From: a virus
Reading direction: 5' to 3' (one strand)
Virus record (IMG/VR): IMGVR_UViG_3300042556_001053
Coordinates: 32,001-96,000 of that record
Length of the DNA: 64,000 bases
In this document: piece after piece, positions 10,066 to 37,217 of the stretch
How positions within the stretch are numbered: position 1 is the stretch's first letter
Layout: each line of letters starts with the position of its first letter
Notes under the pieces: model-generated
Databases searched by the model: none
What the model saw: only the letters and a program-made list of their open reading frames with translations
Told to the model about the DNA's origin: nothing
Position numbers and translations under genes: made by a program

Positions 10066-10068
10066 TGT

Positions 10069-10407
10069 TTACTTACCGTATGCTCTCTTCACTTCTTCTG
10101 GAGAAGCTGTGCGTACAGACTTGTTTGTTATCCATTTATCAGCATCCTCCTTAGTGACTATGTTGTACCCCTTGGTTAACTCACCAACGCCATTCCAGTG
10201 AAGATTGCGAACTGAATAAACTGCTACCTTCTCTTTTGGCTCTTGCTTTTTAACCACTAGCTCTGATGACTCTTTAGGCACAAAGCTAAAAATTACCTCT
10301 AAAATATCATTTTTTGTACTTACCCCAAATAGGTCAATGTTATTTTTCTTTGCGTATGACTTTAGTTCAAAGACAGTCTTACTTTTTAATTCATCTATTA
10401 ATGACAT
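10069..10407 (-). CDS. Small protein with Rho-N/HeH-like N-terminal motif
   Basis: LKSKTVFELKSYAKKNNIDL...KNDILEVI; GGAGG RBS before the ATG at 10407. Confidence 0.55.
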   Translation of the reverse strand: MSLIDELKSKTVFELKSYAKKNNIDLFGVSTKNDILEVIFSFVPKESSELVVKKQEPKEKVAVYSVRNLHWNGVGELTKGYNIVTKEDADKWITNKSVRTASPEEVKRAYGK

Positions 10408-10444
10408 TGTATCCTCCACTGCTATTATATCAGAATATGACTAA

Positions 10445-10470
10445 GGGAGACAGTTTTTACGCTGTCTCCC
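10445..10470 (-). terminator. Terminator-like hairpin after major capsid gene
   Basis: GGGAGACAG...CTGTCTCCC, 9-bp stem. Confidence 0.6.
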
Positions 10471-10489
10471 TCGTCAAGTTAATTTGAGA

Positions 10490-11617
10490 TTATGACTCTA
10501 CTGCAGCATCTGCGTAAGCAACTGCATCAAGCTCTTCCCATTGTAGACCAAAGCGGACGAATACTGTGTATTCAATTGTGTCCTTCTTTGGCTGGTATGT
10601 GCGGTTTACAGTGATATCTCGCTGGAATCCCCATACACGGTTTGAAGGGAATGTAAGATCTACATAGCCTGCTGGGTAGTATGGAACTTCCTGAACGTCA
10701 ACACCAAGAACACGTGTTGTACGTGCTCCACCAAATGTCTGTGCTCCACCATCTAGGTAAGCCTGACGATTAGCCTGTGTTGATCCTGCGATCTGTCCTG
10801 CAAATGCTTCTGCAACTGCATCAGCAAGTGTACCGTTATTCTTAACGATTCCCTGGAATGCATCTGTACCTGCGTAGAACTTTAGATTGTTCTTGATAGC
10901 ACGGTACTTGCGTGGCATTGCTAGGATGATATCCTGCATAACTTCTGGTGTCCATGCGTTATCTGTTACAGTAACGATTGACTCATGTGCGCCACCATCT
11001 GTCTTAACACGGTTTACGAAACCTTCCATGATTGAAAGGAAGTCACCTGTTGAACCATCACCATTAATGGCAAGGTCTTCAATATCGTTTGCAAATGCAT
11101 TGGTCATCAAGCGAACTAGATGATCCTCAAGTGCTGCGCCTTCAATATTGTCTTCTAGTGCTTCTGTTGAAACTTCCCAGTCAAGACGAATCTTCTTGGT
11201 TGTAAGTTCTACCTTAGAGAATGTTGCACCTGCATTTGTAAATGTAGGCTGTGCCTGTGCTGCTGCACGAATGACACGCTCTCCAACGTTGACCTTCTCA
11301 AGTTCCATTGTGTTAGCACGCATTGTAACTCTACGACCATCCTTGGCTAGTACAGTTGCATCCCATACATAATCAATGAAGCGACGAGCCTGCTCTGGTG
11401 CAAGGATACCACCTGGTGTACCAGTTGGGTTTACTGCATTTGGTCCAGATGTTAATCCGTAATTTGCTGTCGCAATATTACCAAGTGAAGCTGCTGGACT
11501 TAGATTTCCATCGGGTCCTTGTGCTACTGCACCACCAATTCCACCTGATACGGCAACGCCATCACCTGTGGGATGATTAAAAGACTTTTGAAGATCTGTG
11601 TTTGTTGTTTCTGACAT
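10490..11617 (-). CDS. Major capsid protein (HK97 fold)
   Basis: GGILAPEQARRFI, VSTEALEDNIEG and DIEDLAINGD motifs; GGAGGTG RBS; synteny. Confidence 0.92.
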   Translation of the reverse strand: MSETTNTDLQKSFNHPTGDGVAVSGGIGGAVAQGPDGNLSPAASLGNIATANYGLTSGPNAVNPTGTPGGILAPEQARRFIDYVWDATVLAKDGRRVTMRANTMELEKVNVGERVIRAAAQAQPTFTNAGATFSKVELTTKKIRLDWEVSTEALEDNIEGAALEDHLVRLMTNAFANDIEDLAINGDGSTGDFLSIMEGFVNRVKTDGGAHESIVTVTDNAWTPEVMQDIILAMPRKYRAIKNNLKFYAGTDAFQGIVKNNGTLADAVAEAFAGQIAGSTQANRQAYLDGGAQTFGGARTTRVLGVDVQEVPYYPAGYVDLTFPSNRVWGFQRDITVNRTYQPKKDTIEYTVFVRFGLQWEELDAVAYADAAVES

Positions 11618-11643
11618 ATTGTTCACCTCCTAGTGATTTTGTT

Positions 11644-12951
11644 TTAGTTAAATAGGTCGGAATTTGTGAGGAAACGTCCGCCCCATAGGGATTTCTGAAT
11701 CACTTTAGGTGATTCCTGTACAATCTCGCCGAGATCGCCAGACTTGCGGAAAGCGGTATCTGCAACTACGGCATCTACGGTCTTTCCAAACTCATTAAAG
11801 CTTCCCTTAACTTCCTTAACTTCCTCTGTTACGGATTCAAGAGACTTTGTAATTGCATCAACGTTGGCTTGCATAGCCTTTACTGTTGCTGCAAGATCGC
11901 TCAAGGCATTAGTTACAGAGTTCTGAATTTCAGAAACTGCCTTGGCAACTTCTGCTGTTGCTGTTGCAACCTCAACGATTGCTTCGTCAGCCTTCTCTGT
12001 TACTTCTTCAATAGAAGGAGCACTAACCTCTTCAACAACTGCATCTGACTTTTCTGCTACAACTTCTTCTGTAACTTCTAGTGACTTTGCAACTGCCTCT
12101 GCAGGAGCCTCTGGAGCAACCTCAACTTCATTAACTACCTCTGCTGCTGGTGCTTCTGGAGCATCAACAACTGCTGTTGTTTCTTCTGTCATAGGATTAT
12201 CCTCCTTTGCTATCTTAATTGTTCTAATGCCTTTTGCACTATCAACTAAGAACTTTATCATTTCTGTTTTTTCTGAATCATTTTTTTCAACAAAACCAAT
12301 GTTTTTCATTTCTTCGCCAGTGACTGGACTTACTTCTGATTCATTTGCTGACAAAGTTACTAGGCCAGACTCTGAATCGTAAAATACATTTTCAACAACT
12401 ACATTAGCTGATGATCCTGTTAGTGTGTCTACTCCGTCAACCTTTTCAACGGATACAATATTTGCAAACTGATTTGCTGGGGAATCTACAAGACTCAACT
12501 CAATCAAATCGTATTCCTTAATAACTCTAATTGTCTTATCTGCTTTTTCATCATATGCATCGTCCCACTTGTTCATTCGTCCCCCAATAGAAAAACCAGT
12601 GTATGTACCATCAAGAACCTTTTCCCAGGCATCCTGTGCGCCCTTTGAAATATAGGCTGAAACAAAAACACCCTTGTAGAACTTCTTTGACTCTGTATCA
12701 AAATACTTTTCTTCTTTAAATGAAACCATCTTGCCTACTGCTGATGGCTGATGCATTTCTCTAATGTTGCCACGGAACTTTGCAAATGCTTCCATTGATG
12801 CTTCTGTTGTAACAATATCATCTTGCTTATCAAGGTTGTCCAAAGATGCAAATCCAGAAACGATGCGCTTCTCTTTGTCTACTTTTGTAAGAGGCATTGA
12901 CAGACGTACATTATCGCCGTCTGTTGACCAATGTGCTTTATTTATATTCAT
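11644..12951 (-). CDS. Prohead protease fused to scaffold-like acidic/coiled-coil tail
   Basis: VSGFAS..DKQDD, REMH, GFSIGG and ELSLVDSPAN motifs; Glu/Ala-rich C-half. Confidence 0.88.
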   Translation of the reverse strand: MNINKAHWSTDGDNVRLSMPLTKVDKEKRIVSGFASLDNLDKQDDIVTTEASMEAFAKFRGNIREMHQPSAVGKMVSFKEEKYFDTESKKFYKGVFVSAYISKGAQDAWEKVLDGTYTGFSIGGRMNKWDDAYDEKADKTIRVIKEYDLIELSLVDSPANQFANIVSVEKVDGVDTLTGSSANVVVENVFYDSESGLVTLSANESEVSPVTGEEMKNIGFVEKNDSEKTEMIKFLVDSAKGIRTIKIAKEDNPMTEETTAVVDAPEAPAAEVVNEVEVAPEAPAEAVAKSLEVTEEVVAEKSDAVVEEVSAPSIEEVTEKADEAIVEVATATAEVAKAVSEIQNSVTNALSDLAATVKAMQANVDAITKSLESVTEEVKEVKGSFNEFGKTVDAVVADTAFRKSGDLGEIVQESPKVIQKSLWGGRFLTNSDLFN

Positions 12952-23922: not shown

Positions 23923-24147
23923 TTAAAGTATATAATTACTGTAGCCAATGATTTGAAGCGGAATTGGAGGAACAGCGCTTGCTCCGCCTGCTTCAATGCG
24001 AATTGCTGTTAGTCTAATTCTAAACGGTAGTGTAGAGTTTATAACTACATTTTTGCTTGGAGCGCTAATGCTTGTTCTAATTGCAAAATCTTGTTCAATT
24101 CTTTTTGTAAATACTGGCCTGTCTTCATAAATCTTAACAGTAGCCAT
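23923..24147 (-). CDS. Hypothetical small virion-cluster protein
   Basis: TAATG-coupled ORF. Confidence 0.5.
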   Translation of the reverse strand: MATVKIYEDRPVFTKRIEQDFAIRTSISAPSKNVVINSTLPFRIRLTAIRIEAGGASAVPPIPLQIIGYSNYIL

Positions 24148-24560
24148 TATGCAGTTACATCCTCAAGGACAATGAGTCTGCCTTGAGCTACCGTCCAAAC
24201 TATTGCATCTCCTCCAAGTGAAACTTCAATATCAAAAATATCATTGGTTTGAAGAGTTGCAGTTTGACTTGCTGACAGAGAAACTGTAAATTCTCCAACA
24301 AGATCGTCTGCATCTTGAATTGGTGTTAAAGTTAAAAGCAAAGTTGCTGTATCTGTTATTTCTCCAGGAACTACTGGGCTTGTAGTAGGACGCTTTATCT
24401 GCATAGAAATATTCCAGTCAGGGATAACTAAAGGTACTTTAGCGTCATCAGTTAAATAAACCTTAAATGCTGCTGTATCGCCCTTGACAAAAGTCCAATT
24501 TACGAATGGTGGTCTTTCACCAATATCATATGTAGATGCTTGTCCTCTGAATGTAGCCAT
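24147..24560 (-). CDS. Putative baseplate/adaptor-like beta protein (similar to 36816..37217)
   Basis: WTFVKGDTAAF versus WTVVRGDSSSL in the second copy; leaderless TGGTATAAT promoter. Confidence 0.5.
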   Translation of the reverse strand: MATFRGQASTYDIGERPPFVNWTFVKGDTAAFKVYLTDDAKVPLVIPDWNISMQIKRPTTSPVVPGEITDTATLLLTLTPIQDADDLVGEFTVSLSASQTATLQTNDIFDIEVSLGGDAIVWTVAQGRLIVLEDVTA

Positions 24561-24702
24561 TTTTATATTATACCACGATGAAAACAACAAATAAAATAAT
24601 TTAAAAAAATATTACAAAAGGTTGCCTTTTGGGTCAATTTCATGTTATACTTAGATAGTGCTACCAACAGGTAGCATCTTTAGTCTCTAGGAGGTTATTA
24701 TT

Positions 24703-25275
24703 ATGAGAAGAGATAAAAAGATTTGGATTGGAATCCTTGCTGCACTTGGGCTTATTGCACCACTAAGTAATGCAGCTAATGCTTTAAGTACTGAAAATAA
24801 CTTGAGTAAACCAGCCATTGCTGAACCTTCAACCGCCAAGGCGGTTTTTTTGGTTTCTAAGCCTAAAAGTCTGGTAGCAGTAAAAAAGAACCTAAATGTT
24901 CTACATAAGTATCAGGATGCTGTTAGTCTTACAGACCGTCAGTTAAAGGAGCTTTTGCATGCCGTTGGTTTTCGTGGCCAAGGCCTAGTAAAGGCTTGGG
25001 CGGTAGCTAAGAAAGAGTCTAATGGCCGTCCACTAGCTTTTAATGGCAATGTTAAGACTGGTGACAACTCTTACGGTATATTTCAAATCAATATGCTTGG
25101 AATGCTAAAAGAAGGTCGTCAAGATAAGTTTGGCCTAAACTTTAATAGTGAGCTCTTAAACCCTGTTATCAATGCACAGGTTGCATATCACATGAGTAAT
25201 GGTGGAAAGAACTGGTCTGCTTGGAAAGGCATGACTCCAAGAACCAAGTCCTGGATGGCTAAGTTCCCTTACTAA
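24703..25275 (+). CDS. Secreted lysozyme-like/lytic transglycosylase (SLT/Rpf-like)
   Basis: Signal-peptide-like N-terminus; AWAVAKKES catalytic Glu; SYGIFQIN; NWSAW; GGAGG RBS. Confidence 0.8.
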   Translation: MRRDKKIWIGILAALGLIAPLSNAANALSTENNLSKPAIAEPSTAKAVFLVSKPKSLVAVKKNLNVLHKYQDAVSLTDRQLKELLHAVGFRGQGLVKAWAVAKKESNGRPLAFNGNVKTGDNSYGIFQINMLGMLKEGRQDKFGLNFNSELLNPVINAQVAYHMSNGGKNWSAWKGMTPRTKSWMAKFPY

Positions 25276-25850
25276 AAAGGCAAATTTTTATTAAGAACTG
25301 TTGGGTGCTCATCATTACCTCTCATAAATATTGTTGAGAAGTATCTAGGCGAATCATCTAAAACTGGAAGAGATCCATGCATAACTTCTCCTCCATGAAG
25401 TAGGGCTGAGCCAGCTTTTGGTTTAATAGTTATTCCTAATTCTGGGTAGTCAAGCTCTCCACCAAGATAGTTATCATTATAATATATTACAAGGCCATAG
25501 CCTAAATAATATCCTTCAGGGGTTGTATCATTATCACGATGTTGCTTTATTTGATCGCCTTTTTTAAACCTAGAAATCTTTAATTCTTGTTCACAAAAAA
25601 AATATGATGGGAATATGTAGTCAACCTTATCAAAAACCAAGCTTCTACACAAATCTTTATGATCATAAAGGAACAAACTTTTATCGTGCCATAAACTATA
25701 TTCATCTGAAATTTCATTAAGATCAGTCCAGCCATCTTGTTTTTTATCAGAAAGTATATTTAAAATTAAAGACAGTTCTTCTTGATTTAAAAAGTTTTCA
25801 ATTTCATAAACATCCTCTGCAAGTTTGTTAATTTTAAAATTGTATTTCAT
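25272..25850 (-). CDS. 2OG-Fe(II) oxygenase, prolyl-4-hydroxylase-like
   Basis: HRD...YYNDNYLGGEL...HG...R. Confidence 0.85.
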   Translation of the reverse strand: MKYNFKINKLAEDVYEIENFLNQEELSLILNILSDKKQDGWTDLNEISDEYSLWHDKSLFLYDHKDLCRSLVFDKVDYIFPSYFFCEQELKISRFKKGDQIKQHRDNDTTPEGYYLGYGLVIYYNDNYLGGELDYPELGITIKPKAGSALLHGGEVMHGSLPVLDDSPRYFSTIFMRGNDEHPTVLNKNLPF

Positions 25851-26519
25851 TTAACCAAACTTACTACTACCTATATGGTTCATTTCAATATGATTAATAT
25901 TAAAATGACTTGGAAGATCTGATACCCACCTAATAGACTCTGCAAGATCTTCAGCAGTCAAGGCTATTTCACGTCTTTCTGTTTGTGTATCAATAGTTCC
26001 TGGGCATATTTCAGTAACCTTAATGCCGTAAGCAGGAAACTCTAAACGCATAGTATCAACTAGTGCCATCATTCCTCTTTTAGCGTTTATATAGTTACCA
26101 CCACTACGGTATGGAACCTTTCCACCCAAGGAACTTATAAATATAATAGTTGGAGACTTAGACCTTTGCATGCATGGAACAAAAAGCTGTGAAAGGTACA
26201 TAGGTCCAGAGACATTTATTTCGTAGGCAATTCTAAAATTATCCATTGTTTCATTTATAAGCATTGTTGGACCTGATCCACCACCAGCATTATTAACTAG
26301 AAGGTCAAGTGTGATATCTTTGTATTTTTCAAAAAAAGACTTAATCTCTTCAGGATTAGTTATGTCCATCTTGTATGTTTCAACATTGTCAGATACAAGC
26401 TCATTGACCTTAGAAAGGTTTCTAGAGACAGCTATAACCTTGTAGCCACTCTCAGACAGAAGTTTTACTGTAGCATAGCCAACGCCCTTGCTAGCCCCTG
26501 TAACTATGGCTGTTTTCAT
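25851..26519 (-). CDS. Short-chain dehydrogenase/reductase
   Basis: TGASKGVG, NNAG, YINAK (YxxxK) and PG motifs. Confidence 0.9.
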   Translation of the reverse strand: MKTAIVTGASKGVGYATVKLLSESGYKVIAVSRNLSKVNELVSDNVETYKMDITNPEEIKSFFEKYKDITLDLLVNNAGGGSGPTMLINETMDNFRIAYEINVSGPMYLSQLFVPCMQRSKSPTIIFISSLGGKVPYRSGGNYINAKRGMMALVDTMRLEFPAYGIKVTEICPGTIDTQTERREIALTAEDLAESIRWVSDLPSHFNINHIEMNHIGSSKFG

Positions 26520-27220
26520 CTGTTGTCCGTAGGCTGTGTACCGCCAGATAAGTCGTTATACCAGTGCATAGGTATCATATATTTAAAACCACTTTTTACA
26601 AGGTGAGCTGTATGATGATAAGGAGGAGAAGATGGGAATATAATTACGCTTCCAGCTTCTGGTTTAATTCCTATTGTTATTCTGTCAGAATCCTTGGACA
26701 AAGAGTAGTCTTCTGATGGCTTTCCATTAATAATAGGGGCATCTGGGGACTCTATGGTAAAAGATAATTCGCCACCTTCGTAGTCATCATTTAAATAAAA
26801 CACTAAAGAGTATCTTAACCTAGTGTCCCCTTCTTGTTGATCAAAGTGTGCACCCATAAAGGTTCCAGCGCTATATTTTTTAATATCAAAGGCTGGTAGA
26901 ATCATTGGCTCTTCCATGTCTCCTTTTGATACTGCATAGTCTTTGCAGACATTATAGAATAAATCAGTTATTGTGTTATATATGTAACTAACAGGGCTAG
27001 CATCTTTATCTGCTATTTTTTCAGAATCAGATGGCTGAACAGTTTTTTGAGATCCATACAAATACATCTCTCCACTGCAGGCTGTCCACTCATTCCATTT
27101 AGTCAAGGATGTGCCATAGTCTTTGCTCTCAGTGGCTTCAATCATTTCTATAAACTTTTTTGGATCTGCTATTGCATTTTTATAGTAATATATGTTTTCT
27201 TCAAGTATTTCTCTTTGCAT
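26516..27220 (-). CDS. 2OG-Fe(II) oxygenase, P4H-like
   Basis: HFD...YLNDDYEGGE...HHT...K. Confidence 0.85.
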   Translation of the reverse strand: MQREILEENIYYYKNAIADPKKFIEMIEATESKDYGTSLTKWNEWTACSGEMYLYGSQKTVQPSDSEKIADKDASPVSYIYNTITDLFYNVCKDYAVSKGDMEEPMILPAFDIKKYSAGTFMGAHFDQQEGDTRLRYSLVFYLNDDYEGGELSFTIESPDAPIINGKPSEDYSLSKDSDRITIGIKPEAGSVIIFPSSPPYHHTAHLVKSGFKYMIPMHWYNDLSGGTQPTDNR

Positions 27221-27963
27221 TACATTATCCCCTTATTTGATTGTTGAGGATACATGCTCATGTTGTTGTGTATCCAATGACCTGGAACCATATACTTAAA
27301 TCCAGACTTTACTGTATGTGCTATATGAAAATATGGTGCTTTTGCAGGAAAAATTATTACGCTATTTGCTTTTGGCTTTATTCCAAAGTCTATTGATTTG
27401 CTTGCCTTGGCTATTTCATAATCTAGGTCTACACCTGGTGCTCCATGAACCCAGCCTTCGGAGCTATTCCATCCACCATCATAGTCTTTAAGCTGAAATG
27501 AAATTTCTCCGCCTTCACAGTCATCATTTAAATACATGACTAAAGAATATCTTAGTGTTTCATCTCCATCTAGTTGATCAAAGTGTGCTCCCATAGATCT
27601 TCCAGTATTATACTTTTTAATATTAAATGTTGGAAACAGATTTGGCTCATCGTAGTCTCCAAGAGATAAAGCATAATCTTTACATACATTATGAAACGTT
27701 TTCATAACAGCATCATAAATATACTTGGTTTTTTCTCCAACCTCGTCTTTTAATTTATTAATTGAATCTAAATTAAAGGTTTTGGTTTCACCATAGATAA
27801 AAGACTTATCGTTAGAAGATGTCCAAGGCTCCCAAACATTTACGTTATGTTCACTTGATGCGTCCAATGCGTCCAGCTCTTTTAAAATTTTCTGAAAAGT
27901 ATCAAAATTTTCTATTGCATCAGTATAATAATAAACCTTTGGATCTAAAATTTCTTTATTCAT
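27220..27963 (-). CDS. 2OG-Fe(II) oxygenase, P4H-like
   Basis: HFD...YLNDDCEGGE...H...K; close paralogue of the previous gene. Confidence 0.85.
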   Translation of the reverse strand: MNKEILDPKVYYYTDAIENFDTFQKILKELDALDASSEHNVNVWEPWTSSNDKSFIYGETKTFNLDSINKLKDEVGEKTKYIYDAVMKTFHNVCKDYALSLGDYDEPNLFPTFNIKKYNTGRSMGAHFDQLDGDETLRYSLVMYLNDDCEGGEISFQLKDYDGGWNSSEGWVHGAPGVDLDYEIAKASKSIDFGIKPKANSVIIFPAKAPYFHIAHTVKSGFKYMVPGHWIHNNMSMYPQQSNKGIM

Positions 27964-27972
27964 TCTGTCTCC

Positions 27973-28632
27973 TTAATATTTATTATTTTCATAGAAGTTT
28001 TTTTCTTTTATAAAACCAACTAGAACATATCTAATTGGTCCCTCACCAACTGGAATTACTCCGTGATGAAAATCGCTAGTTCCTGGGAAAATAAGAAGTG
28101 ATCCCTTTTTAGGTTTTATTTTTAAATCTAAGTTTTTAAAAAACAATTCTCCATCAGCATACTCATCATTAAGATATAAAATGGTTGCATAACGAATTGA
28201 GGGATCTGTGTCTTGATCTGTATGAGCCTTTAGTTCAACTCCAGGCTGCATCCTTTGCAATGTAGCTAGTCCACTTAGCTCTAAATTACTTCCTTCATTA
28301 ACTACGGCTTTATTTAGTCTTTGATATACAGTGTGATAGATTGGATATGCCCTTATTACCAGATTCTTGTCTTCCCAGTTTCTGGTGATCTCAAACTTTC
28401 CTTCAGCAACAAGATTGTCAACGTCATCTCTACCAAATTTTTCCATACAGAATCTTTTAAGGTTGGAAGTATATTCTATAAACCAATCCTCGTCTGGTGT
28501 ATTGTTGATAATCTCTAAATAGTCGTCTATTTCTTCTTGAGAAATAAAATCTTCTAATAAAAGTAGATCTTTTGATATTTCTTCAAATTTTATTCCTAGA
28601 TCAGTTAGCTCTTTTGTAAGATATGCAGACAT
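27973..28632 (-). CDS. 2OG-Fe(II) oxygenase, P4H-like
   Basis: HTD...YLNDEYADGE...HGV...R. Confidence 0.85.
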   Translation of the reverse strand: MSAYLTKELTDLGIKFEEISKDLLLLEDFISQEEIDDYLEIINNTPDEDWFIEYTSNLKRFCMEKFGRDDVDNLVAEGKFEITRNWEDKNLVIRAYPIYHTVYQRLNKAVVNEGSNLELSGLATLQRMQPGVELKAHTDQDTDPSIRYATILYLNDEYADGELFFKNLDLKIKPKKGSLLIFPGTSDFHHGVIPVGEGPIRYVLVGFIKEKNFYENNKY

Positions 28633-28633
28633 A

Positions 28634-29383
28634 CTAGATTACCTCCTCTGGCTTATATTTATTTCCATCTTTATCTAGCTTCCACCCTTGCTTAAGTAGC
28701 TCTTGCCACTCTGCTCTTTCAATCTCTTGCTTTGCTCTTGTTTCTTTCATTTCTTCGGCCCATGCATCTCTTACCTCTTGTGGGTAGGCATCTTCTTCAC
28801 GGTCATCCCAGAAAGATCCTATGGTATATCTTACACCTTTAGTAATTAACGATACTTCGTGCATATTATTAAATCCACCGTCAAATACGGCAAGCATTCC
28901 AACCTTTGGCTGAATTTCTATGTTTTGATCTGGAAATCTTAAAAGACCACCTTCAAAATCATCGTTTAAGTACAGGAATCCTGCATATCTACTTCTTGTA
29001 AATGCTCCAGAATTGCCCTTCTCATCTGTATTATCAGAGTGTACTCTTGCATAAGCACCTGGCTCCCACTTTTGAGTATGATATCCAATTTTAGAAATTA
29101 TTTTTGGGTCTAAGTCATGTACTGATGCAATTGCTTCTGGCATCTTACTTTCAATATCTGAAAAAATAGTTGGAGATAGCCCAGCGTCAATTACCTCTTG
29201 ATCATTGTCTTGTGGTAGCACTGAAGAATATGACTCATAAAATGATATAGGCATCCAAGTTAGTCCGCCGTTATTTGCTTGTGCATCAAGTGCATTAATC
29301 ATCTTTTTGCACTCATCTTCACTAACAAAGTTTTCAAAAATAACAATATCCTTTGTAAGTCTTATCTTATTGTTTAGGTTCAT
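28634..29383 (-). CDS. 2OG-Fe(II) oxygenase, P4H-like
   Basis: HSD...YLNDDFEGG...HEV...R. Confidence 0.85.
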   Translation of the reverse strand: MNLNNKIRLTKDIVIFENFVSEDECKKMINALDAQANNGGLTWMPISFYESYSSVLPQDNDQEVIDAGLSPTIFSDIESKMPEAIASVHDLDPKIISKIGYHTQKWEPGAYARVHSDNTDEKGNSGAFTRSRYAGFLYLNDDFEGGLLRFPDQNIEIQPKVGMLAVFDGGFNNMHEVSLITKGVRYTIGSFWDDREEDAYPQEVRDAWAEEMKETRAKQEIERAEWQELLKQGWKLDKDGNKYKPEEVI

Positions 29384-30261
29384 TTTATTCTCACAGCTCC
29401 TTCTATTTCGTTTCTTTGTGGATGATCTTTTCTAAACTGTTCATGTATTTCTGGTTGCATGCTTGCCCATACATGCTTACCAAACTCTTTTTCTTTTTCA
29501 TACCATTCATCAGACCCTTTTTCATACTTTTGCCAATACATTCTTGACAAAAACTTATTTTTATTGTAAGAAGGCATTACTCCATGTAAGTATGGATCAC
29601 CATTTTCTGTTAAATAATCGGGATGCCCTGATGGAAAAACAAGTAGGTCTCCTGCTTGTGGCTTATATTTAACAAGCTTATCTCCCATTGCAAAGTCAAC
29701 CTCTCCGCCTTCATAGTCGTCATTAAAATAAATAGTGCATGTTATTACAAACTTGTATCCTGGAGCATCTGCCATCTCTCTCTGATAGTCTGAATGATAT
29801 CTCATCCCTACCTTTTCTTCATCAGTGCTTACATGATACTTTCCAACTGTTCCACCAGCCCACTTCCAGGTTGGAACAGTCTGACCACTTTCATCTACAG
29901 ACAAGTCATCTAAATCTACTTCTACCCCATACTTTTTAATATAGTGCTCTGTAGCCAAATAAAAGTTTTCCAACATCTCTATTGCAAAGAGTCGCTGGTC
30001 TTCCTGAGACTGTGTTGTTGTTTTGATATCTTTTAAACCGCCGTACTTATCGTACATAATCAGATTAGGTATTATTGGGCTTAAGTATTCTCCAAAAATA
30101 GACCATTGTGTCCAAGGGCTAAAAAGTCTATCTTCTGAGTTATCCAAAGAATCATTTAAAACTTTGTAAGATTTTGAAATATCTTTAAACATATTTTTAT
30201 AAACTACAATATTTGGGTATATTTCTTCAAACACAATACCATTTTCTTGGGTGTTGTTCAT
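29380..30261 (-). CDS. 2OG-Fe(II) oxygenase, P4H-like
   Basis: HSD...YFNDDYEGGE...HGV...K. Confidence 0.85.
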   Translation of the reverse strand: MNNTQENGIVFEEIYPNIVVYKNMFKDISKSYKVLNDSLDNSEDRLFSPWTQWSIFGEYLSPIIPNLIMYDKYGGLKDIKTTTQSQEDQRLFAIEMLENFYLATEHYIKKYGVEVDLDDLSVDESGQTVPTWKWAGGTVGKYHVSTDEEKVGMRYHSDYQREMADAPGYKFVITCTIYFNDDYEGGEVDFAMGDKLVKYKPQAGDLLVFPSGHPDYLTENGDPYLHGVMPSYNKNKFLSRMYWQKYEKGSDEWYEKEKEFGKHVWASMQPEIHEQFRKDHPQRNEIEGAVRIK

Positions 30262-31145
30262 CTTAATCTAACCCCATTATCTATTGTAATTCTTTGTAGG
30301 TTTTCTTTTTCATATTGACCCTGAATCTTATTCATCTCTGACTGCCAAGAGTCACCAAAAATTAGACTTTTTTCTTTCCACTCATCAGATGAGTCTTCAT
30401 ATACTGTCCAAAACATCCTTATAAAATATTTTTCATTTTCTTTACAAATTTCTGCAGCATGTAGATATACCTCACCATCTTCTGTGGAATATTCTGGATG
30501 TCCTGAAGGAAAAACAACAAAATCTCCAGCTTTTGGTTTATAGTTTATTAGCTTATTGCCAACTGCAAAGTCAATTCCGCCTCCTGAATAATTATCATTT
30601 AGGTATATGGTTGTAGTCAAAACAAACTTATATCCTGGGCCCTTTATAGCTTCTCTAACATAGTCGCTGTGATATCTCATTGCTAATCTTTCAGAGTCTG
30701 GCCCAGCAGCGGTAGAACCAACATAATATTTACACAAAGATGGTCCAGTCCAGTTCCACTTTTGATATTTTTTTCCATCTGATTGAACAGTATCTTTTTC
30801 TTCTTTGTGTATTGGGAAGTTGTGTTTTTCAATATAGTGGTTATTAGCCAAATGAAATGCTTTAATTAATTCAATCATAAAATATCTTTGATCTTCTTGA
30901 ACCTTGCTAGTAGGTTCTATGTCAAAGTTAATTTTAAGATCTGAGACATTTTTATCAAAAGATATTCCAAAGTTTTCTATTTTTTCACCTATAGAGTACC
31001 AGTCATTCCACTTGTCCCATATAGCATCTTCATAATTATTTATTGAATCTTTTGCAATCTGATACATTCTTTCTGGGTCTTCAAATATGTTATTGTAAAC
31101 AACAATATTTGGATAAATTTCTTCAAATGTAAGTTCTGTAGTCAT
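30258..31145 (-). CDS. 2OG-Fe(II) oxygenase, P4H-like
   Basis: HSD...YLNDNYSGG...H...K; paralogue of 29380..30261; start reassigned to MTTELTF. Confidence 0.83.
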   Translation of the reverse strand: MTTELTFEEIYPNIVVYNNIFEDPERMYQIAKDSINNYEDAIWDKWNDWYSIGEKIENFGISFDKNVSDLKINFDIEPTSKVQEDQRYFMIELIKAFHLANNHYIEKHNFPIHKEEKDTVQSDGKKYQKWNWTGPSLCKYYVGSTAAGPDSERLAMRYHSDYVREAIKGPGYKFVLTTTIYLNDNYSGGGIDFAVGNKLINYKPKAGDFVVFPSGHPEYSTEDGEVYLHAAEICKENEKYFIRMFWTVYEDSSDEWKEKSLIFGDSWQSEMNKIQGQYEKENLQRITIDNGVRLR

Positions 31146-31146
31146 A

Positions 31147-31821
31147 TTACGGCTTTCTGTCTCCAGTATGTTCCGTAATTTCCCAAAAAAATGGACATGT
31201 AAATCTAAGCCCACTTTTTATTTCTGTGACCCCATGTATATAGTTCATATCTCCAGGGAAAAAATATGCTGCTCCTTTTTTAGGTTTAAATTGAACTCCT
31301 TGATTTGGAAAGTATAGCTCTCCGCCTTCGTAGTCTTCATTTAAATAAAACAAACTGGAAAGATCATAGTTTGGAAAATCATTTGGCAGTCCTGCGTCTG
31401 GCCCGTCGTGCAGTTCTTTATCAGCGTGTGGTTTTTGGAATTGTCCTGGAAGCCACTTGACAATTGTTGTTCCTGTAGGAATTACTTTTACTTTATAAAA
31501 TTCTTCTACTATTGGTTGCAATCTTTGAAATAGGCCAGCAATGACTGGAGATATCTTTGGATCGTTTTTGTCTAAACTTGGCTGTGTTGCAACTCTATCT
31601 TTCCAATAATCTGAATCGTATACTACTGTACCGTTTTCATTTACATGGCTTTCTGTTACATCCCAAATTGTTAAAGATTTTGCAGCCTTTTCTAAAAACT
31701 CTATTTCTTCTTGTGTCATAAAGTTTTCTAGCTCAACAATCATTTCTTTGCCACTACCAAACCAGCCAGAAGGTGTTATTGATGGCTTTCTAACCACAAC
31801 AGAAGCTTTTATATTATCCAT
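31147..31821 (-). CDS. 2OG-Fe(II) oxygenase, P4H-like
   Basis: HAD...YLNEDYEGGE...HGV...R; leaderless promoter. Confidence 0.85.
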   Translation of the reverse strand: MDNIKASVVVRKPSITPSGWFGSGKEMIVELENFMTQEEIEFLEKAAKSLTIWDVTESHVNENGTVVYDSDYWKDRVATQPSLDKNDPKISPVIAGLFQRLQPIVEEFYKVKVIPTGTTIVKWLPGQFQKPHADKELHDGPDAGLPNDFPNYDLSSLFYLNEDYEGGELYFPNQGVQFKPKKGAAYFFPGDMNYIHGVTEIKSGLRFTCPFFWEITEHTGDRKP

Positions 31822-31823
31822 AA

Positions 31824-32552
31824 TTAGATTATACCATTTCCTTTGCTTGCTGTATTGTCCGTAACAGAAAGACGGATAACCTTTGTTTCGTGAGAGCCTT
31901 TACTTTCACCCTTTTCATTAATTGCATCTCTATACCAATCGGTCCATTCACCAGATTGATTAATTTTTTGTGCAGCTTCTCCATATGACTGATGAGCTTT
32001 TTCTCTACTACGATCTGGATCTGAATAATCAAATATTTGAATTGATGTATTGTCCATTGCTGTCAAAGAGATTGGTACTATAGTTGCAAGAGGTGTACCT
32101 GCTTTTATAGTAATTTCTTTATTCGCAGATCTTGCTTTAATTGCTAATGGGAAACCAGTATCTAGCCAAGATGTACTGATTAAAGAAGACATGGTTTCAA
32201 AGTCTTCACTAAAATAGTTTACTGGGTTAATAGTGAACATGCTTACGTTTTGTTCAGATCTAAAGGTGAGCCCTGTATGTATACTTACTGTAGATTGTCC
32301 CCTGCCAGTATAAGTAAACCCTTCTCCCTCTATAACTTTAACATTTTCTGAACTTGTATCGTTTATTCCATTCCATATAAACTTGATATCCTCTTTAGCT
32401 GAAAGATTCCACCCAACCATGTTTGCTTGGGTTACTGGAAAACATCTGTATGCATGCTTTTCTGGAGTAAGATCCATCCAGTCTCTTTTTATTGACATTG
32501 GAGAAATTATAATTTTTGAATCTGGAAATCTTTCAACAGAGATATTTAACAT
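31824..32552 (-). CDS. DUF6065-like protein
   Basis: RDWMD..PEKHAYRCFPVTQANMVGW signature; IKAGTPL C-terminal motif. Confidence 0.65.
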   Translation of the reverse strand: MLNISVERFPDSKIIISPMSIKRDWMDLTPEKHAYRCFPVTQANMVGWNLSAKEDIKFIWNGINDTSSENVKVIEGEGFTYTGRGQSTVSIHTGLTFRSEQNVSMFTINPVNYFSEDFETMSSLISTSWLDTGFPLAIKARSANKEITIKAGTPLATIVPISLTAMDNTSIQIFDYSDPDRSREKAHQSYGEAAQKINQSGEWTDWYRDAINEKGESKGSHETKVIRLSVTDNTASKGNGII

Positions 32553-33229
32553 TACATTTTATCCTGAGTAAACATATCTGGAGTATGGAACTTTTTGTTA
32601 TAATCCAACATAGTAACAATAGAGTATTTTGTTCCAGATTCTACTGGCATAGCTTGATGAGGATACATGTAGTTTGATGGGAAGATATACAGATCTCCAG
32701 CCTTTGGCTTAATCTTTAAATCTTGCAATCTAAAGTACAACTCGCCACCTTCATAGTCATCATTGATGTATGCAACAAGAGAGACTGTACAATTATAAGA
32801 ATACCCATGGTCATGGTGCTCCATAAAGTGTTGTCCTGGACCATACTTTATAAAGTTAAAGGCTTCCCAATATTTAAGATCCATAATGTTGTAATCTTTT
32901 CTGTAATCTTCAACTGCCTGGAACTGAGCATCATATACATCTTGCCAAAGAGATTGTAGCTTTAAAGATGTTTCGCTTTTATCTAGCTCTATATCTGTTT
33001 TCTTAAACTTAAAATCAACACAGTCTCTGTAGTCTGGAATAAGTTGCTGGTACCCAACGTATGCTGGCATCCAGTGGTATCTGTTACCTTCTGGAGATAA
33101 TTCTCCGTATCCAGCTACTGACCCTAAATTTTCTTCAAGTCTTTCTATTACATTGAAGTCTTTTTTTATTACATCTCTGTAACATACAATTCCATTACCA
33201 AGATTTATTTTTTCTGTCCATGTTTGCAT
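32552..33229 (-). CDS. 2OG-Fe(II) oxygenase, P4H-like
   Basis: HHD...YINDDYEGGE...FPSNYMYPH...K. Confidence 0.87.
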   Translation of the reverse strand: MQTWTEKINLGNGIVCYRDVIKKDFNVIERLEENLGSVAGYGELSPEGNRYHWMPAYVGYQQLIPDYRDCVDFKFKKTDIELDKSETSLKLQSLWQDVYDAQFQAVEDYRKDYNIMDLKYWEAFNFIKYGPGQHFMEHHDHGYSYNCTVSLVAYINDDYEGGELYFRLQDLKIKPKAGDLYIFPSNYMYPHQAMPVESGTKYSIVTMLDYNKKFHTPDMFTQDKM

Positions 33230-33238
33230 AGTTTCCCC

Positions 33239-34015
33239 CTATTTATATTCTCTTCTTGTCCAAACCTTATTTTTATAAACGCCACCATCTGGTTGTCTAT
33301 AAAAATTTGCATTACTCATCATTTTAGCATAAATTTCTGTTGAGCCTATAAAGTTTATTTCATGACTCCAGTCTTCTCTTTTAAAAGGCAGTATCTGTAC
33401 ATATGGTGTTCCTGCTGGAAGCGTTCCTTCCCAACCTTCTGTAATAAAAAATGGAAAAGTACCTAGAAGATGAACACTATCATTGTCAACAACTCCAGTG
33501 GTATTTATAAATGGCAAATCAAAACGATTCATTGGGGTCATGAATAATGCACTGTATCCTTCTGGCAATTCTAGGCCCCAGTCTGGGTACCAGGCAAAAT
33601 GCTCTCTATAATATCCTTTTGGTTGCTCAAATTGTGGCATTGCCATTCTTTTGCTGCAAAAATCTTGATGTCGTGTATCTTCTATTTTTACATCTATAGA
33701 ACCGCTTGCTGTTTTAAAAAAAGTAATATCACAAGGAGTTTTTAATACATATCCTGTTGTAAATGCATCCATGATTGCTGGACATGCTTTCCATGTAGGA
33801 ATCTTTCCATAGTCATCTTTTGTTCCTTCTTTAGGAAATGGACAAATCTGCGGTGTGGCTTTGTAGTATTCACCAATAGGATCTTTGGCAAACCTATCTG
33901 CATCTTTGTACCATTGTGGAATTACTGCTTGTGTTGGTGATGGAACAGAGGGACTATCCTTTGTAACCCATGGCCTATAAGCTGTAAACTTTGCAATATT
34001 TTCTTTTAATGTCAT
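33239..34015 (-). CDS. DUF6065-related protein
   Basis: IPQWYK, TWKACPAIMDAFTTGY, TTGVVDND and PAGTPYVQILPFKREDW motifs. Confidence 0.55.
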   Translation of the reverse strand: MTLKENIAKFTAYRPWVTKDSPSVPSPTQAVIPQWYKDADRFAKDPIGEYYKATPQICPFPKEGTKDDYGKIPTWKACPAIMDAFTTGYVLKTPCDITFFKTASGSIDVKIEDTRHQDFCSKRMAMPQFEQPKGYYREHFAWYPDWGLELPEGYSALFMTPMNRFDLPFINTTGVVDNDSVHLLGTFPFFITEGWEGTLPAGTPYVQILPFKREDWSHEINFIGSTEIYAKMMSNANFYRQPDGGVYKNKVWTRREYK

Positions 34016-34728
34016 TACTTATGACCTAGCTCATTTATATCTGTCATGACTACGACACAATACTTTGTACCGCTCTTCATTGGCAGAGATGCATGCTCAT
34101 ATATGTAGTTTGATGGAAACACTGCAATGTCTCCTACCTTTGGAGTAAGAGTGTAGCCATCTAATCTTGGAAATTGAATCTCTCCGCCTTCATAATCATC
34201 GTTAATATAGATAACTGCAGATACTGTAGCATTATATGCTGGTCCGTGATCAGCATGAATATTAAAGTGTTTTCCTTCGCCTTCATATTTGACAAAGTTG
34301 AATGCTTCATAATAAACAACATTAATTCCCCAGTATCTTGCATAATCATCTATACAAAGCTTTAGCTTTTCGTATATCTCCTGATGTAAATCAATGAGCT
34401 CACTATTGAAAGGATCTCTTGGTCCCAAATTTTCCTGCTTGTATTTAAAGTCAACGCAATCTCTTGCTCGTTTAATTGGTGTAGCAGAGTTTGTAACTGT
34501 TGCTTCAGACCATCTAAACTTTTTTGTTCCGTCTAAGTTAGATTCAAGTGTGTTTATATATCTTTTTGAATCTTCTAAAGAAAACACATTTCTATATATG
34601 TTCAAACCAAGACCTGGGTTCTCTATTACAATATTGTGCTCAGGTATAGCCCTATCAACCTTGTTTGTTATTGTCTCTGATCTGTCCTTGGTAAACCATG
34701 GGTTTTCATTTTCATCATAAATTTCCAT
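34015..34728 (-). CDS. 2OG-Fe(II) oxygenase, P4H-like
   Basis: HAD...YINDDYEGGE...FPSNYIYEH...K; paralogue of 32552..33229. Confidence 0.87.
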   Translation of the reverse strand: MEIYDENENPWFTKDRSETITNKVDRAIPEHNIVIENPGLGLNIYRNVFSLEDSKRYINTLESNLDGTKKFRWSEATVTNSATPIKRARDCVDFKYKQENLGPRDPFNSELIDLHQEIYEKLKLCIDDYARYWGINVVYYEAFNFVKYEGEGKHFNIHADHGPAYNATVSAVIYINDDYEGGEIQFPRLDGYTLTPKVGDIAVFPSNYIYEHASLPMKSGTKYCVVVMTDINELGHK

Positions 34729-34883
34729 ATATATCCCCTTTTTATTTTATTATACACTATCTTTATTTTTTTGTAAAACAATTTAAATATTATTGCAAAC
34801 CTTTTGCAACATATAAGATCTAGCACTCATAAAAACACAAAAGGCCAAACAATGTTGGCCAATTGTATTACTGCTTTTTTATT

Positions 34884-35960
34884 TTATACTACACCTGGTA
34901 GTGTGAAGTATGGGAAGAACGGTCCAACTCCAAACCCTGGGAAGAACGGTGGGAAGAATGGGAAGAACGGGAAGAATGGGAAGAACGGTGGGAAGAACGG
35001 GAAGAATGGGAAGAACGGGAAGAACGGTGGGAAGAATGGGAAGAACGGGAAGAATGGGAAGAACGGTGGGAAGAATGGGAAGAACGGGAAGAATGGGAAG
35101 AACGGTGGGAAGAACGGGAAGAATGGGAAGAACGGGAAGAAAGGTGGGAAGAATGGAGGGAAGAATGGGAAGAAAGGAGGGAAGAATGGAGGGAAGAACG
35201 GTGGGAAGAATGGGAAGAACGGTGGGAAAAATGGCGGGAAGAATGGAGGAAAGAATGGGAAGAACGGAGGAAAGAACGGTGGGAAAAATGGAGGGAAGAA
35301 AGGAAAGAATGGAAAGAATGGTGGAAAGAATGGTCCTAATGTAACAACAACAGAGTTAGAGTTTGAAGATACTGGAGATGATCCATTTGCATTTGTTGCA
35401 ATAACTGTATATGTATATGTTCCTGCTGTTGTTTCTGTAATAGTAAGTGGGGTTCCTGTGCCAGTTGCTGTTTTTCCAGAAGTAGAAGTGACTGTATAGT
35501 TTGGAGTAGTTAAAGCTGAGTTTCCAATTTGTGCAGATGTAAGGTTTGTAAAAGGAATAGTTACAATTCCAGTTGTTCCATTAACTGATGCTGTTCCAAT
35601 TGTTACCTGAGCTGGCTTAGATGTTGGGACTACAGCATTACTTGCTGAAGAAGCTGCAGAAACTCCGATTGCATTTGTTGCGGTAACGGTAAAAGTATAA
35701 TTTGCTGGAGTTCCACTTGTTGACAAACCTGTTATAACTATTGGAGAAGATGATCCAGTTCCTGTATGTCCACCAGATGAGGTTACTGTATATCCTGTAA
35801 TAGGCATCTTGCCATTATAAGAAGGGGCTGAAAAAGATACAGAAACCTGACCGCTATTAAATGTGCGTCCTGATCCTTGGTCTGTAGCTGTGCCAATTAC
35901 TGGTGCGTTTGGAACTGACTTCTTTGATGAATCTGTTGTACCAGTATTTTTTGGGCTCAT
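34884..35960 (-). CDS. Two fibronectin type III-like domains plus a 132-aa Pro/Phe-only C-terminal tract
   Basis: PNAP...VSFSAP..NG..PITGYTVT...YTFTVTATN FN3 pattern twice; TGGTACAAT promoter 7 nt before the ATG. Confidence 0.85.
   Translation of the reverse strand: MSPKNTGTTDSSKKSVPNAPVIGTATDQGSGRTFNSGQVSVSFSAPSYNGKMPITGYTVTSSGGHTGTGSSSPIVITGLSTSGTPANYTFTVTATNAIGVSAASSASNAVVPTSKPAQVTIGTASVNGTTGIVTIPFTNLTSAQIGNSALTTPNYTVTSTSGKTATGTGTPLTITETTAGTYTYTVIATNANGSSPVSSNSNSVVVTLGPFFPPFFPFFPFFPPFFPPFFPPFFPFFPPFFPPFFPPFFPFFPPFFPPFFPPFFPFFPPFFPPFFPFFPFFPFFPPFFPFFPFFPFFPPFFPFFPFFPFFPPFFPFFPFFPFFPPFFPFFPFFPFFPPFFPGFGVGPFFPYFTLPGVV
34938..35333 (-). repeat. Tandem repeat encoding 38 PFF/PPFF units, with 39-nt higher-order units in the distal part
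   Basis: Plus strand shows repeated GGGAAGAAY/GGTGGGAAGAAY units. Confidence 0.95.
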
Positions 35961-36000
35961 AGCAGTAATTGTACCATAAGATTATACAGTTTTTGATATT

Positions 36001-36720
36001 TTATCTAACAGATATATAAATAGATTTAGCAACCATTGAGGCATCATTATCTGTCAATATTTGTGGTAGTCCGCCATAGTTTCTAACCATGTCATTTTCT
36101 ATAAAAAAGGTGTGCTCTAATGACATGTCATATGAAAACTGATACTTTAGGTTTGCAGCAAAGGTAGTAGGCCAAAAGTCAGACTCTGGTATGTAAGTTC
36201 TAAACCAAACTTCAGTGTTGTTGGTAAGGGTAGTCAAAATAATATCATAACGGACTGTTACAATTGAGCCAACCTTTAGTGCTTTAAGGTTTATTTTTTG
36301 TGATTGTGAGTTATATAATGAAACGTTATTTTCTGGTAAATAAAGCTCGTTATTTTTACCCCTACAGTCAAAGCTAAAGCTAACCCAGCCGTCATTTCCT
36401 TTTGTAGCACCAAGAGTAATATTTTTTTGATCTTTGTTTGTATAAAGAGCCCAACCAGTTCTTTGACCTGATGGAGACAAACTGCTTTCTCCTGCTATTC
36501 CATCCCTACCGTTTTTTCCATCTTTACCAGGTTTTCCAGGTTCTCCCTGTGGTCCTTGTTTGCCTTCTGGTCCAGAATCGCCTTTATCACCCTTTGGGCC
36601 CTGTTCTCCTTGTGGTCCAGGAACAGCTATGAAAGAAACTGATTGCTCAAGTTGATAAGAGTTGTTTACATTGTCTGAATATTTTTTAGACTTCCCTGGA
36701 AAATCCATGCTAGTTGACAT
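36001..36720 (-). CDS. Collagen-like (Gly-X-Y) repeat virion protein
   Basis: GPQGEQGPKGDKGDSGPEGKQGPQGEPGKPGKDGKNGRDGIAG followed by a globular domain. Confidence 0.8.
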   Translation of the reverse strand: MSTSMDFPGKSKKYSDNVNNSYQLEQSVSFIAVPGPQGEQGPKGDKGDSGPEGKQGPQGEPGKPGKDGKNGRDGIAGESSLSPSGQRTGWALYTNKDQKNITLGATKGNDGWVSFSFDCRGKNNELYLPENNVSLYNSQSQKINLKALKVGSIVTVRYDIILTTLTNNTEVWFRTYIPESDFWPTTFAANLKYQFSYDMSLEHTFFIENDMVRNYGGLPQILTDNDASMVAKSIYISVR

Positions 36721-36729
36721 GAATTGAAT

Positions 36730-36816
36730 CTATTTCTTTACCTTAAAAACCTTTTTTCCAATTTTAATAACTGGTGGAAGGTTTACTTGAGATACCTCAA
36801 CTTTAATTACAGGCAT
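36730..36816 (-). CDS. 28-aa basic micro-ORF (MPVIKVEVSQVNLPPVIKIGKKVFKVKK)
   Basis: TAATG-coupled to the upstream gene with a GGAGG RBS; fills the gap between genes. Confidence 0.5.
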   Translation of the reverse strand: MPVIKVEVSQVNLPPVIKIGKKVFKVKK

Positions 36817-37217
36817 TATAAACCTCCAGGAGTTATGTCACCTAGAACACAAATTGTTCCAAGTACTGGAGTCCAAACAGTTGGCTCTATATCATCTTCT
36901 CCAGCAGGTATTGTTGCCTGTAGGTCAAATGGAAGTTCAGAAACTATTGATGTATATTTTGTTCCCCAGTTTTTTGTTAAATCTGCTGATGCAAAAATTG
37001 TTGCTGTATGACCAGAAACTGTAACTGTTAACTCATCAAGAAAATCACCAGACACGTCATAGGCCGTTGCTGCAAAGTCCCAATCCTCTATATCCCAGCC
37101 AGTGGCTTCATCATCTTCAAGAAATTGAACTGCTAGGCTTGACGAATCTCCACGAACAACGGTCCACTGGATGTGAGCTGGAGTTGCTCCTAATTTTTCT
37201 ATTGCTGGGGTACACAT
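36816..37217 (-). CDS. Putative baseplate/adaptor-like beta protein
   Basis: Similar to 24147..24560; leaderless promoter. Confidence 0.5.
   Translation of the reverse strand: MCTPAIEKLGATPAHIQWTVVRGDSSSLAVQFLEDDEATGWDIEDWDFAATAYDVSGDFLDELTVTVSGHTATIFASADLTKNWGTKYTSIVSELPFDLQATIPAGEDDIEPTVWTPVLGTICVLGDITPGGL

Follow-up and report, generated by a model that had tools for sequence, protein, structure and literature searches.

Tandem arrays of 2-oxoglutarate (2OG) oxygenase genes have been known from aquatic phages since about 2010, and to our knowledge no substrate has been assigned to any of them. In phage Syn9 the segment encoding gp41 to gp54 combines ten tandem dioxygenases with a dUTPase-fold Cys protein, and metabolite biosynthesis has been suggested as its function (Iyer, Abhiman, de Souza & Aravind, 2010; PMC2938197). 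The closest known case of a virus-encoded prolyl 4-hydroxylase (P4H)-type oxygenase with Pro-rich repeat proteins in the same genome is PBCV-1, which, in the account cited in PMC7019647 (Eriksson et al., 1999), has one P4H (vCPH) plus its own Pro-rich repeat peptides; the PBCV-1 virion carries P4H, and hydroxyproline (Hyp) was not detected in virions (PMC7019647). Here we describe a locus within a window of 64,000 nt, the whole stretch of DNA that was analysed (G000:C1:32001-96000, from IMG/VR virus record IMGVR_UViG_3300042556_001053), in which a gene for a protein with two FN3 domains and a long tail of Pro and Phe lies directly upstream of 13 packed genes encoding ten 2OG-Fe(II) oxygenases, two DUF6065-like proteins and a short-chain dehydrogenase/reductase (SDR). 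We predict, as a reading that we consider on balance probable, that the Pro/Phe tracts of this phage, namely the 132-residue tail of the FN3 protein, which is encoded in the fibre region, and an 82-residue tract in a distal tail protein, are substrates of the adjacent prolyl-hydroxylase-like battery; the link between tract and array is strongly supported genetically, and the hydroxylation itself is putative.

The array resembles that of Syn9 in that about ten tandem 2OG dioxygenases accompany a dUTPase-fold protein with a conserved Cys, in that Syn9 gp43 matches the DUF6065-like profile of this phage (E-value 4.8e-15), and in its position directly behind fibre genes. It differs in that Syn9 has two tryptophan halogenases and a JmjC/MINA member, none of which was found among the 13 proteins here (Pfam, E <=0.01); merely gp51 and gp53 of Syn9 match the profile of the ten oxygenases, weakly (E ~1e-6), and the Syn9 fibre-region proteins are without a Pro/Phe tract, with at most 20 % Pro in any 30-residue window. 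Syn9 is moreover a cyanobacterial T4-like myovirus, whereas G000 is a WhiB-bearing siphovirus with a tape measure. As for PBCV-1, oxygenase 1 has vCPH (PDB 5c5t) as one of its best matches by fold, and oxygenase 7 matches it weakly by sequence, although PBCV-1 has one enzyme where ten conserved paralogues, two dUTPase-fold proteins and an SDR are present here, its host is a eukaryotic alga and not a bacterium, and its peptide substrates are charged Pro-rich repeats, in contrast to the pure Pro/Phe tract. The P4Hs of collagen, extensins and arabinogalactan proteins likewise act on repetitive Pro-rich structural proteins, with O-glycosylation of Hyp as the step that follows, although in the tract here the prolines have no Gly, Ser or Lys around them. 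Were the tract to be hydroxylated, bacterial viruses would have their own equivalent of the maturation of collagen and extensin. No description of such a system was found in the literature on phage prolyl hydroxylases with fibres, and a full-text search found no open-access paper with any of four tract strings.

The sequence-only reading of this DNA had named a collagen-repeat gene, an FN3-FN3-(Pro/Phe)132 gene and the 13 packed genes, and every one of them is located where it was placed, on the minus strand. The tract protein (358 aa, 34884..35960, minus strand) carries the pure Pro/Phe tract at residues 210-341 (34938..35333, minus strand); its 132 residues are 76 Phe and 56 Pro with no other residue, arranged as 21 PFF and 17 PPFF units, and the protein ends 17 residues beyond the tract with nothing folded C-terminal of it. 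Its own Pfam fn3 match is sub-threshold (E 1.9e-4), and hundreds of its homologues have significant PF00041 matches. At the nucleotide level the tract is a tandem repeat (TRF period 78, 82 % matches) with atypical codon use, TTC serving for 91 % of the Phe codons versus 19 % in 18 other window genes, and CCG for 30 % of the Pro codons versus <1 % in the same genes; long T-runs may be avoided, translation may be under selection, or a few units of 39-78 nt may have been amplified. A plus-strand ORF with GKN repeats (34804-35499) was rejected as a gene, being the tract read antisense.

A search of 5.8 billion proteins gave 887 matches to the tract protein. At least 70 of the best 120 share a plan of conserved N-terminal peptide, one to four FN3 domains, tract and variable end, and in the proteins with this plan the tract is built from P[FY]F or PP[FY]F units and extends from 40 to >130 residues. 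A pure two-letter Pro/Phe polymer of 50 to >300 residues is an unusual protein material. Its length changes even between 96 %-identical relatives of the window's protein (371 and 345 aa versus 358 aa). The variable end may be lacking altogether or consist of a Cys-rich knot or a domain of ~150 aa, which begins with Cys, often ends with HN and is a Hint/BIL domain (profile match to PDB 2lwy, E 1.4e-10, and to many mini-inteins as well). Many relatives carry Hint directly after the tract, as in BIL/Hint systems, unlike the window's tract protein, which has no C-terminal Hint domain. In a second type of carrier the N-terminal domain is unrelated, the tract is strictly (PP[FY]F)n and the protein terminates in ..FK. 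We note also that the tracts of some relatives run to 260 to ~340 residues (L142:3043-..., an 839-aa ORF, and L145, a 548-aa ORF), one of them being followed by (APTE)n repeats and Hint.

G000 itself encodes a second tract carrier, a protein of 1561 aa that lies outside the window and ~45 kb from the array (G000:C1:18683-23365, equivalent to L080:4681-9366, minus strand). Its tract comprises 82 residues of (PPFF)n in three blocks split by SAS and GAT, and stands just before a C-terminal FN3 domain (fn3 E 8e-7). The gene follows the tape measure and minor tail genes, and by this position the product is a distal tail or fibre protein; the Pro/Phe tracts are therefore parts of virion-region proteins and not free peptides.

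The 13-gene array extends from 34728 to 25272 on the minus strand, and most neighbouring genes in it overlap by 1-4 nt. The ten genes that had been read as 2OG-Fe(II) oxygenases all score above the PF13640 gathering cut-off of 27 bits (29.5-57.7 bits), and they account for ten of the 13 PF13640 matches in the whole of G000. All are on the minus strand and are numbered in the order of transcription: oxygenase 1 (237 aa, 34015..34728, E 3.6e-11), which is the most conserved member, oxygenase 2 (225 aa, 32552..33229, E 2.5e-15) and oxygenase 7 (219 aa, 27973..28632, E 9.4e-13); and, each with the catalytic triad, oxygenases 3 (224 aa, 31147..31821, E 3.2e-9), 4 (30258..31214, E 1.5e-6; at most 318 aa, the true start probably lying after the listed GTG), 5 (293 aa, 29380..30261, E 9e-9), 6 (249 aa, 28634..29383, E 6.4e-9), 8 (247 aa, 27220..27963, E 5.5e-9), 9 (234 aa, 26516..27220, E 3.7e-11) and 10 (192 aa, 25272..25850, E 1.2e-6). 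The HxD...H iron motif is intact in all ten, as claimed, and a basic residue (Lys or Arg) follows ~10 residues after the distal His in each. In oxygenase 1 the residues H158, D160, H212 and K222 are invariant in 41 orthologues, and this enzyme is 72-95 % identical across loci whose FN3 parts share only 40-50 %.

The assignment of these enzymes to the prolyl/lysyl-hydroxylase clade is upheld by sequence for oxygenases 2 and 7 and by predicted fold for oxygenase 1. The nearest solved sequences to oxygenases 2 and 7 are Bacillus anthracis P4H, the collagen lysyl hydroxylase LH3, mimivirus L230, P3H1 and PBCV-1 vCPH, all at weak levels of similarity (E >=2.5e-4); B. anthracis P4H and LH3 are the nearest PDB sequences to oxygenase 2, and the PDB sequence matches of oxygenase 7 are likewise to P4Hs. 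An AlphaFold model of oxygenase 1 (pLDDT 69; one of the ten was modelled) is a double-stranded beta-helix with TM ~0.5 to prolyl hydroxylases, and its Foldseek matches with E-values from 1e-8 to 1e-6 are human C-P4H-II, B. anthracis P4H, vCPH, the algal Cr-P4H, PHD2, Pseudomonas PPHD and P3H1. Further fold matches include PiuC, the small-molecule enzyme PolD and PDB entries 5v7y and 4iw3. DNA modification of the TET/JBP type was considered and rejected, as PF12851 matches are sub-threshold and fall on two paralogues only.

The association of tract genes with oxygenase arrays across related phages, which the sequence-only reading had proposed as a test of its idea, held from either side. When IMG/VR loci are picked by the tract protein, oxygenases come next on the same strand in 75 of 79, the remaining four being contig ends or a rearrangement. 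When they are picked by oxygenase 1, an abundant protein present on at least 576 IMG/VR contigs, a tract ORF is found at most 2.5 kb upstream in 67 of the 73 loci that were evaluable among the best 80; four more are led by two short tract genes, in the order tract-tract-ox7-ox7-ox2-DUF-ox1. Loci picked by the (PPFF)n DNA pattern have oxygenase or DUF genes in view in 58 of 79 further cases, and the rest are mostly short loci, contig ends or large fibre proteins. Among 185,579 species genomes (one per prokaryotic species) all five long tracts adjoin oxygenase or DUF genes, the other tract matches being short and probably non-coding. In the loci picked by the tract protein the genes follow a conserved order, ox1-DUF1-ox2-DUF2-ox3-(ox4/5)-ox6-ox7-(ox8 or ox9)-SDR-(ox10), with recognizable orthologues; the paralogues are therefore old and individually maintained.

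The link is not mere inherited gene order, because it is held in an unrelated carrier and because close relatives of G000 have both elements or neither. In the unrelated phage G009 (105 kb, 46 % G+C) a different N-terminal domain carries a tract of the form (PP[FY]F)n..FK, and behind this gene come two ox3-like genes and single ox2-like and DUF genes. G009 overlaps with G000 in this module, collagen-like repeats, ribonucleotide reductase (RNR) and a few small genes only, and no common capsid, portal, terminase or tape-measure gene was found between the two; collagen-like fibre genes adjoin the module. A search for a T4-like capsid (PF07068) in type-B carriers was silent, as was its control.

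The close relatives are 14 large contigs whose capsid protein is at least 77 % identical to that of G000. Two of them (G014 and G026) have the array, the adjoining tract and the second, distant tract, whereas six (G016, G017, G019, G020, G021 and G022) have neither array nor tract, although their contigs span the expected place, judging by where the capsid gene lies and by the order of genes in G000. Among the relatives compared, the second, distant tract is confined to array-bearing genomes, and none of the genomes was seen to be discordant. In G019, which is collinear with G000, the homologous place is taken by genes for FN3 proteins whose tails are Gly-rich, by fibre-like genes and by a single DUF6065-like gene, and oxygenases are absent; the FN3 protein of G027 has a Gly-rich tail as well. 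In G021, which has no array, an FN3 protein (L384, G021:C1:49432-53004) carries a Pro-poor (TPFGF)n tract of ~45 residues followed by Hint (Cys...HNK). We note that the G019 segment L378-L382, at about 7406-12344, encodes two FN3 proteins with long tails rich in Gly, Ser, Ala and Asn.

The two DUF6065-like genes were verified by different routes, one by Pfam and the other by a shared PHROG and alignment. DUF6065 protein 2 (242 aa, 31824..32552, minus strand) matches PF19541 (E 6.5e-30; 104.8 bits against a cut-off of 26.6) and phrog_7084, and DUF6065-like protein 1 (258 aa, 33239..34015, minus strand) has no Pfam match and belongs to phrog_7084 (E 3.8e-34). The two proteins align with A77-C78, G88 and N163 invariant, Cys78 being invariant in both paralogues. 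Each overlaps the stop codon of the preceding oxygenase gene (1 and 2 for proteins 1 and 2) by 1 nt, and a start placed on the last base of that codon suggests translational coupling and perhaps 1:1 complexes. The model of protein 1 (pLDDT 87) has a dUTPase/dCTP-deaminase fold: its top 22 chains, all of the dUTPase superfamily, have VIA Z-scores from 9.7 to 5.8, followed by TLP20 at 5.4 and then by 3.9, and Foldseek also matches it to this superfamily at E ~1e-3. By eye the DUF alignment shows G-[IV]-V-D-x-D, which recalls motif III of dUTPases, and a Q-I-L similar to their motif IV, and motif V was not seen. Among cultured phages protein 1 has matches in haloarchaeal tailed viruses only, where it is a lone gene beside RNR, and protein 2 has no tblastn match in cultured phage records. 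The SDR (222 aa, 25851..26519, minus strand; adh_short, E 5.9e-41) stands near the array end in every related locus with a complete array.

The block had been taken as a single run, and its gene order is indeed as described, although it is not an uninterrupted unit. A terminator-like hairpin with a T-run (34860-34843, minus strand) lies directly 3′ of the tract-gene stop codon and is kept in the close relatives L001-L010. Ahead of oxygenase 1 is a sigma-70-like promoter (34777-34749, minus strand), TTTACA-17-TATAAT, matching at 11 of 12 positions and the top-scoring site of this kind in 19 kb. Both elements are inside the 155 bp that part the tract gene from oxygenase 1, and the arrangement is conserved in the closest relatives. 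Several other lineages have just 17-38 bp between the tract gene and their first oxygenase.

The tract is the likeliest substrate of the array because the two adjoin and related phages carry both or neither. We infer that the modification would be prolyl hydroxylation, with a division of labour among the paralogues and a stiff, soluble rod as the product. The soluble enzymes would hydroxylate tract prolines while the protein is still in the host cytoplasm and virions are yet to be assembled, and the paralogues might divide among themselves the different contexts (P in PFF, the first or the second P in PPFF) or ring positions, or possibly act on the beta-carbon of Phe. Hydroxylation would solubilize a very hydrophobic polymer and hold it, on the tail or fibre, as an extended rod of the polyproline-II type. 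Some of the newly made hydroxyls may be oxidized by the SDR, and the dUTPase-fold Cys proteins, whose genes are each apparently coupled in translation to that of the preceding oxygenase, may serve in assembly or as partners without catalysis of their own. A more elaborate form of this reading, which is possible but which we hold to be doubtful, is a tailored viral polymer in which 8-10 specific oxygenases with two dUTPase-fold partners and an SDR would add 3- or 4-Hyp, beta-hydroxy-Phe, keto groups or cross-links to a Pro/Phe backbone exposed on the tail, with Hint in relatives cleaving the product or ligating it to a further molecule; if true, the dioxygenase arrays of aquatic phages, orphans so far, would gain their first substrate and role. 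What matters in either case is a genetically encoded candidate substrate that adjoins the array and, in close relatives, vanishes together with it, so that the question is reducible to co-expression and mass spectrometry. New here are the collinear array-less relatives with exchanged FN3 tails, the hairpin and promoter between tract gene and array, the linking of the DUF proteins to Syn9 gp43 and to the dUTPase fold, the atypical codon use of the tract, and the failure of a link to a GT60-type gene.

The earlier proposal of a precursor with tailoring enzymes is partly supported: the genetic link between tract and array stands, whereas the form of a peptide natural product of the RiPP kind does not, and an extensin-like coat finds no support as regards glycosylation. 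A RiPP precursor is rejected as one tract belongs to a 358-aa protein that also has two FN3 domains and the other is internal to a tail protein of 1561 aa, and no protease, exporter/transporter or RRE was found among the 13 genes (Pfam, PHROGs). Glycosylation of the coat was considered through a GT60-type glycosyltransferase gene (60641-61690, plus strand; PF11397 'GlcNAc', E 1.3e-19), which is 25 kb away and belongs to the family of the Skp1 Hyp GlcNAc transferase, so that G000 resembles the Skp1 PhyA/Gnt1 system in having such a gene. The family match is real, but the gene does not follow the array across relatives, and a Hyp-GlcNAc pathway is rejected on this failure of co-occurrence with the hydroxylases: PF11397 is present in G000, G002 and G029, and G020, which has no array, carries it twice, but three complete genomes with the array (G001, G028 and G031) lack it.

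Several observations weigh against the tract as substrate. The fold class of the enzymes alone does not fix their substrate, and the tract, having no Gly, is not a canonical X-Pro-Gly collagen P4H site. The expectation that tract composition would track enzyme number was not borne out, for tract length does not track the oxygenase count (Spearman rho 0.28, p 0.14, n=29), and Tyr content shows no clear pattern with the presence of ox5, ox8 or ox9. Arrays that occur independently of tracts had been named as the refuting finding: most of the related loci give no such case, although at two of them, L269 and L249, arrays have no adjoining tract gene, and the array of Syn9 means that at long evolutionary range arrays do exist without Pro/Phe tracts. 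The both-or-neither counts among close relatives are small and phylogenetically non-independent. With the hairpin and promoter in the gap, the tract gene and the array are probably separate transcripts in this window. The dUTPase-fold proteins and the SDR suit small-molecule or nucleotide chemistry at least equally well, and the retention of one DUF6065-like gene in the array-less G019 means that this family is not tied to the oxygenases and may belong to the fibre region instead.

Three other explanations were weighed. One is that the array is a small-molecule pathway, for a secondary metabolite, a free amino acid or a nucleotide, with the tract gene merely its neighbour in the fibre region. 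It would agree with the proposal made for the similar array of Syn9 (PMC2938197), with the homology of Syn9 gp43 to the DUF6065-like proteins, with the fold of the DUF model and its G-[IV]-V-D-x-D motif, with the conservation of the SDR in the array and with PolD among the fold matches of oxygenase 1. However, genes that would build a scaffold, such as those for a halogenase, NRPS or ATP-grasp enzyme or a transporter, are absent from the cluster, the enzymes are best matched by protein hydroxylases in both fold and sequence, and such a pathway leaves unexplained both why the array is present with Pro-rich tails and absent with Gly-rich or Pro-poor ones and why an unlinked second tract co-occurs with it; we consider it unlikely. 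We give a similarly low standing to modification of other proteins, either collagen-like or fibre proteins or host targets such as EF-Tu and ribosomal proteins, with the Pro/Phe cassette travelling along in a mobile fibre module. The array's own promoter would suit this, as would the fact that in Syn9, too, fibre genes precede the array; EF-Tu is a known target of P4H-type enzymes from bacteria (PDB 5v7y and 4iw3), and collagen-like genes adjoin both the tract gene here and the G009 module. The collagen-repeat protein of the window (239 aa, 36001..36720, minus strand; PF01391, E 1.4e-8, and tail-fibre PHROGs) has, however, 15 G-X-Y triplets with just 2 Pro at Y, and of 158 related loci only 31 have collagen-like ORFs near the array, on which grounds collagen is rejected as the main substrate. 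A role in host takeover does not predict loss of the array upon a switch to a Gly-rich FN3 tail, and 8-10 conserved, non-redundant paralogues are a large number for one host target.

P4H-type enzymes (C-P4H) bind polyproline tightly, and the tract might accordingly be a partner of the hydroxylases rather than their substrate, a polyproline-like scaffold or decoy that recruits, packages or regulates them, for example onto the virion. The co-occurrence data fit binding equally, and in PBCV-1 a virion with P4H has no detected Hyp (PMC7019647). That the catalytic triads and the 2OG-binding residue are fully conserved in all ten enzymes, and that nothing indicates the oxygenases to be virion proteins, speaks against it, and we regard this explanation as very improbable. 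The prediction that the tract is hydroxylated by the array remains the one that we favour.

The genome carrying the window (114,443 bp, rated 100 % complete; 37.5 % G+C) is that of a tailed phage, with a 1780-aa tape measure and portal, prohead protease and capsid genes, the capsid protein being ~44 % identical to its counterpart in large Streptomyces siphoviruses. Outside the window it has a WhiB-family gene (G000:C1:103170-103343, minus strand; PF02467, E 2.4e-12), which marks phages that infect Actinobacteria, and this gene together with the low mol% G+C suggests a low-GC freshwater actinobacterial host. The carriers of the array are probably phages of freshwater Actinobacteria, G000 being an uncultured lake phage. 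Neither a megablast search with the region nor a tblastn search with the tract protein gave a match in cultured phages (50,697 phage records), and none of the five tRNAs of G000 is a tRNA-Phe or tRNA-Pro that could supply the tract.

At locus L269, the place that the tract gene would occupy upstream of the array (L269:3089-5101) appears by eye to hold a GT4-type glycosyltransferase-like gene and a P-loop sulfotransferase-like gene. In the window, a secreted-looking SLT/lysozyme-like protein (24703-25275, plus strand; SLT_3, E 5.8e-17), the sole plus-strand gene of the region, converges on oxygenase 10 with a 4-nt overlap. A 133-aa protein of the uncharacterized family phrog_1084 (36816..37217, minus strand) is encoded by the first gene of the block formed with the collagen and tract genes, and many related loci likewise have this gene ahead of their tract gene. 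A paralogue of it (24147-24590, minus strand) stands at the other end, so that the two bracket the block from the collagen gene to oxygenase 10, and such flanking copies are frequent in related loci.

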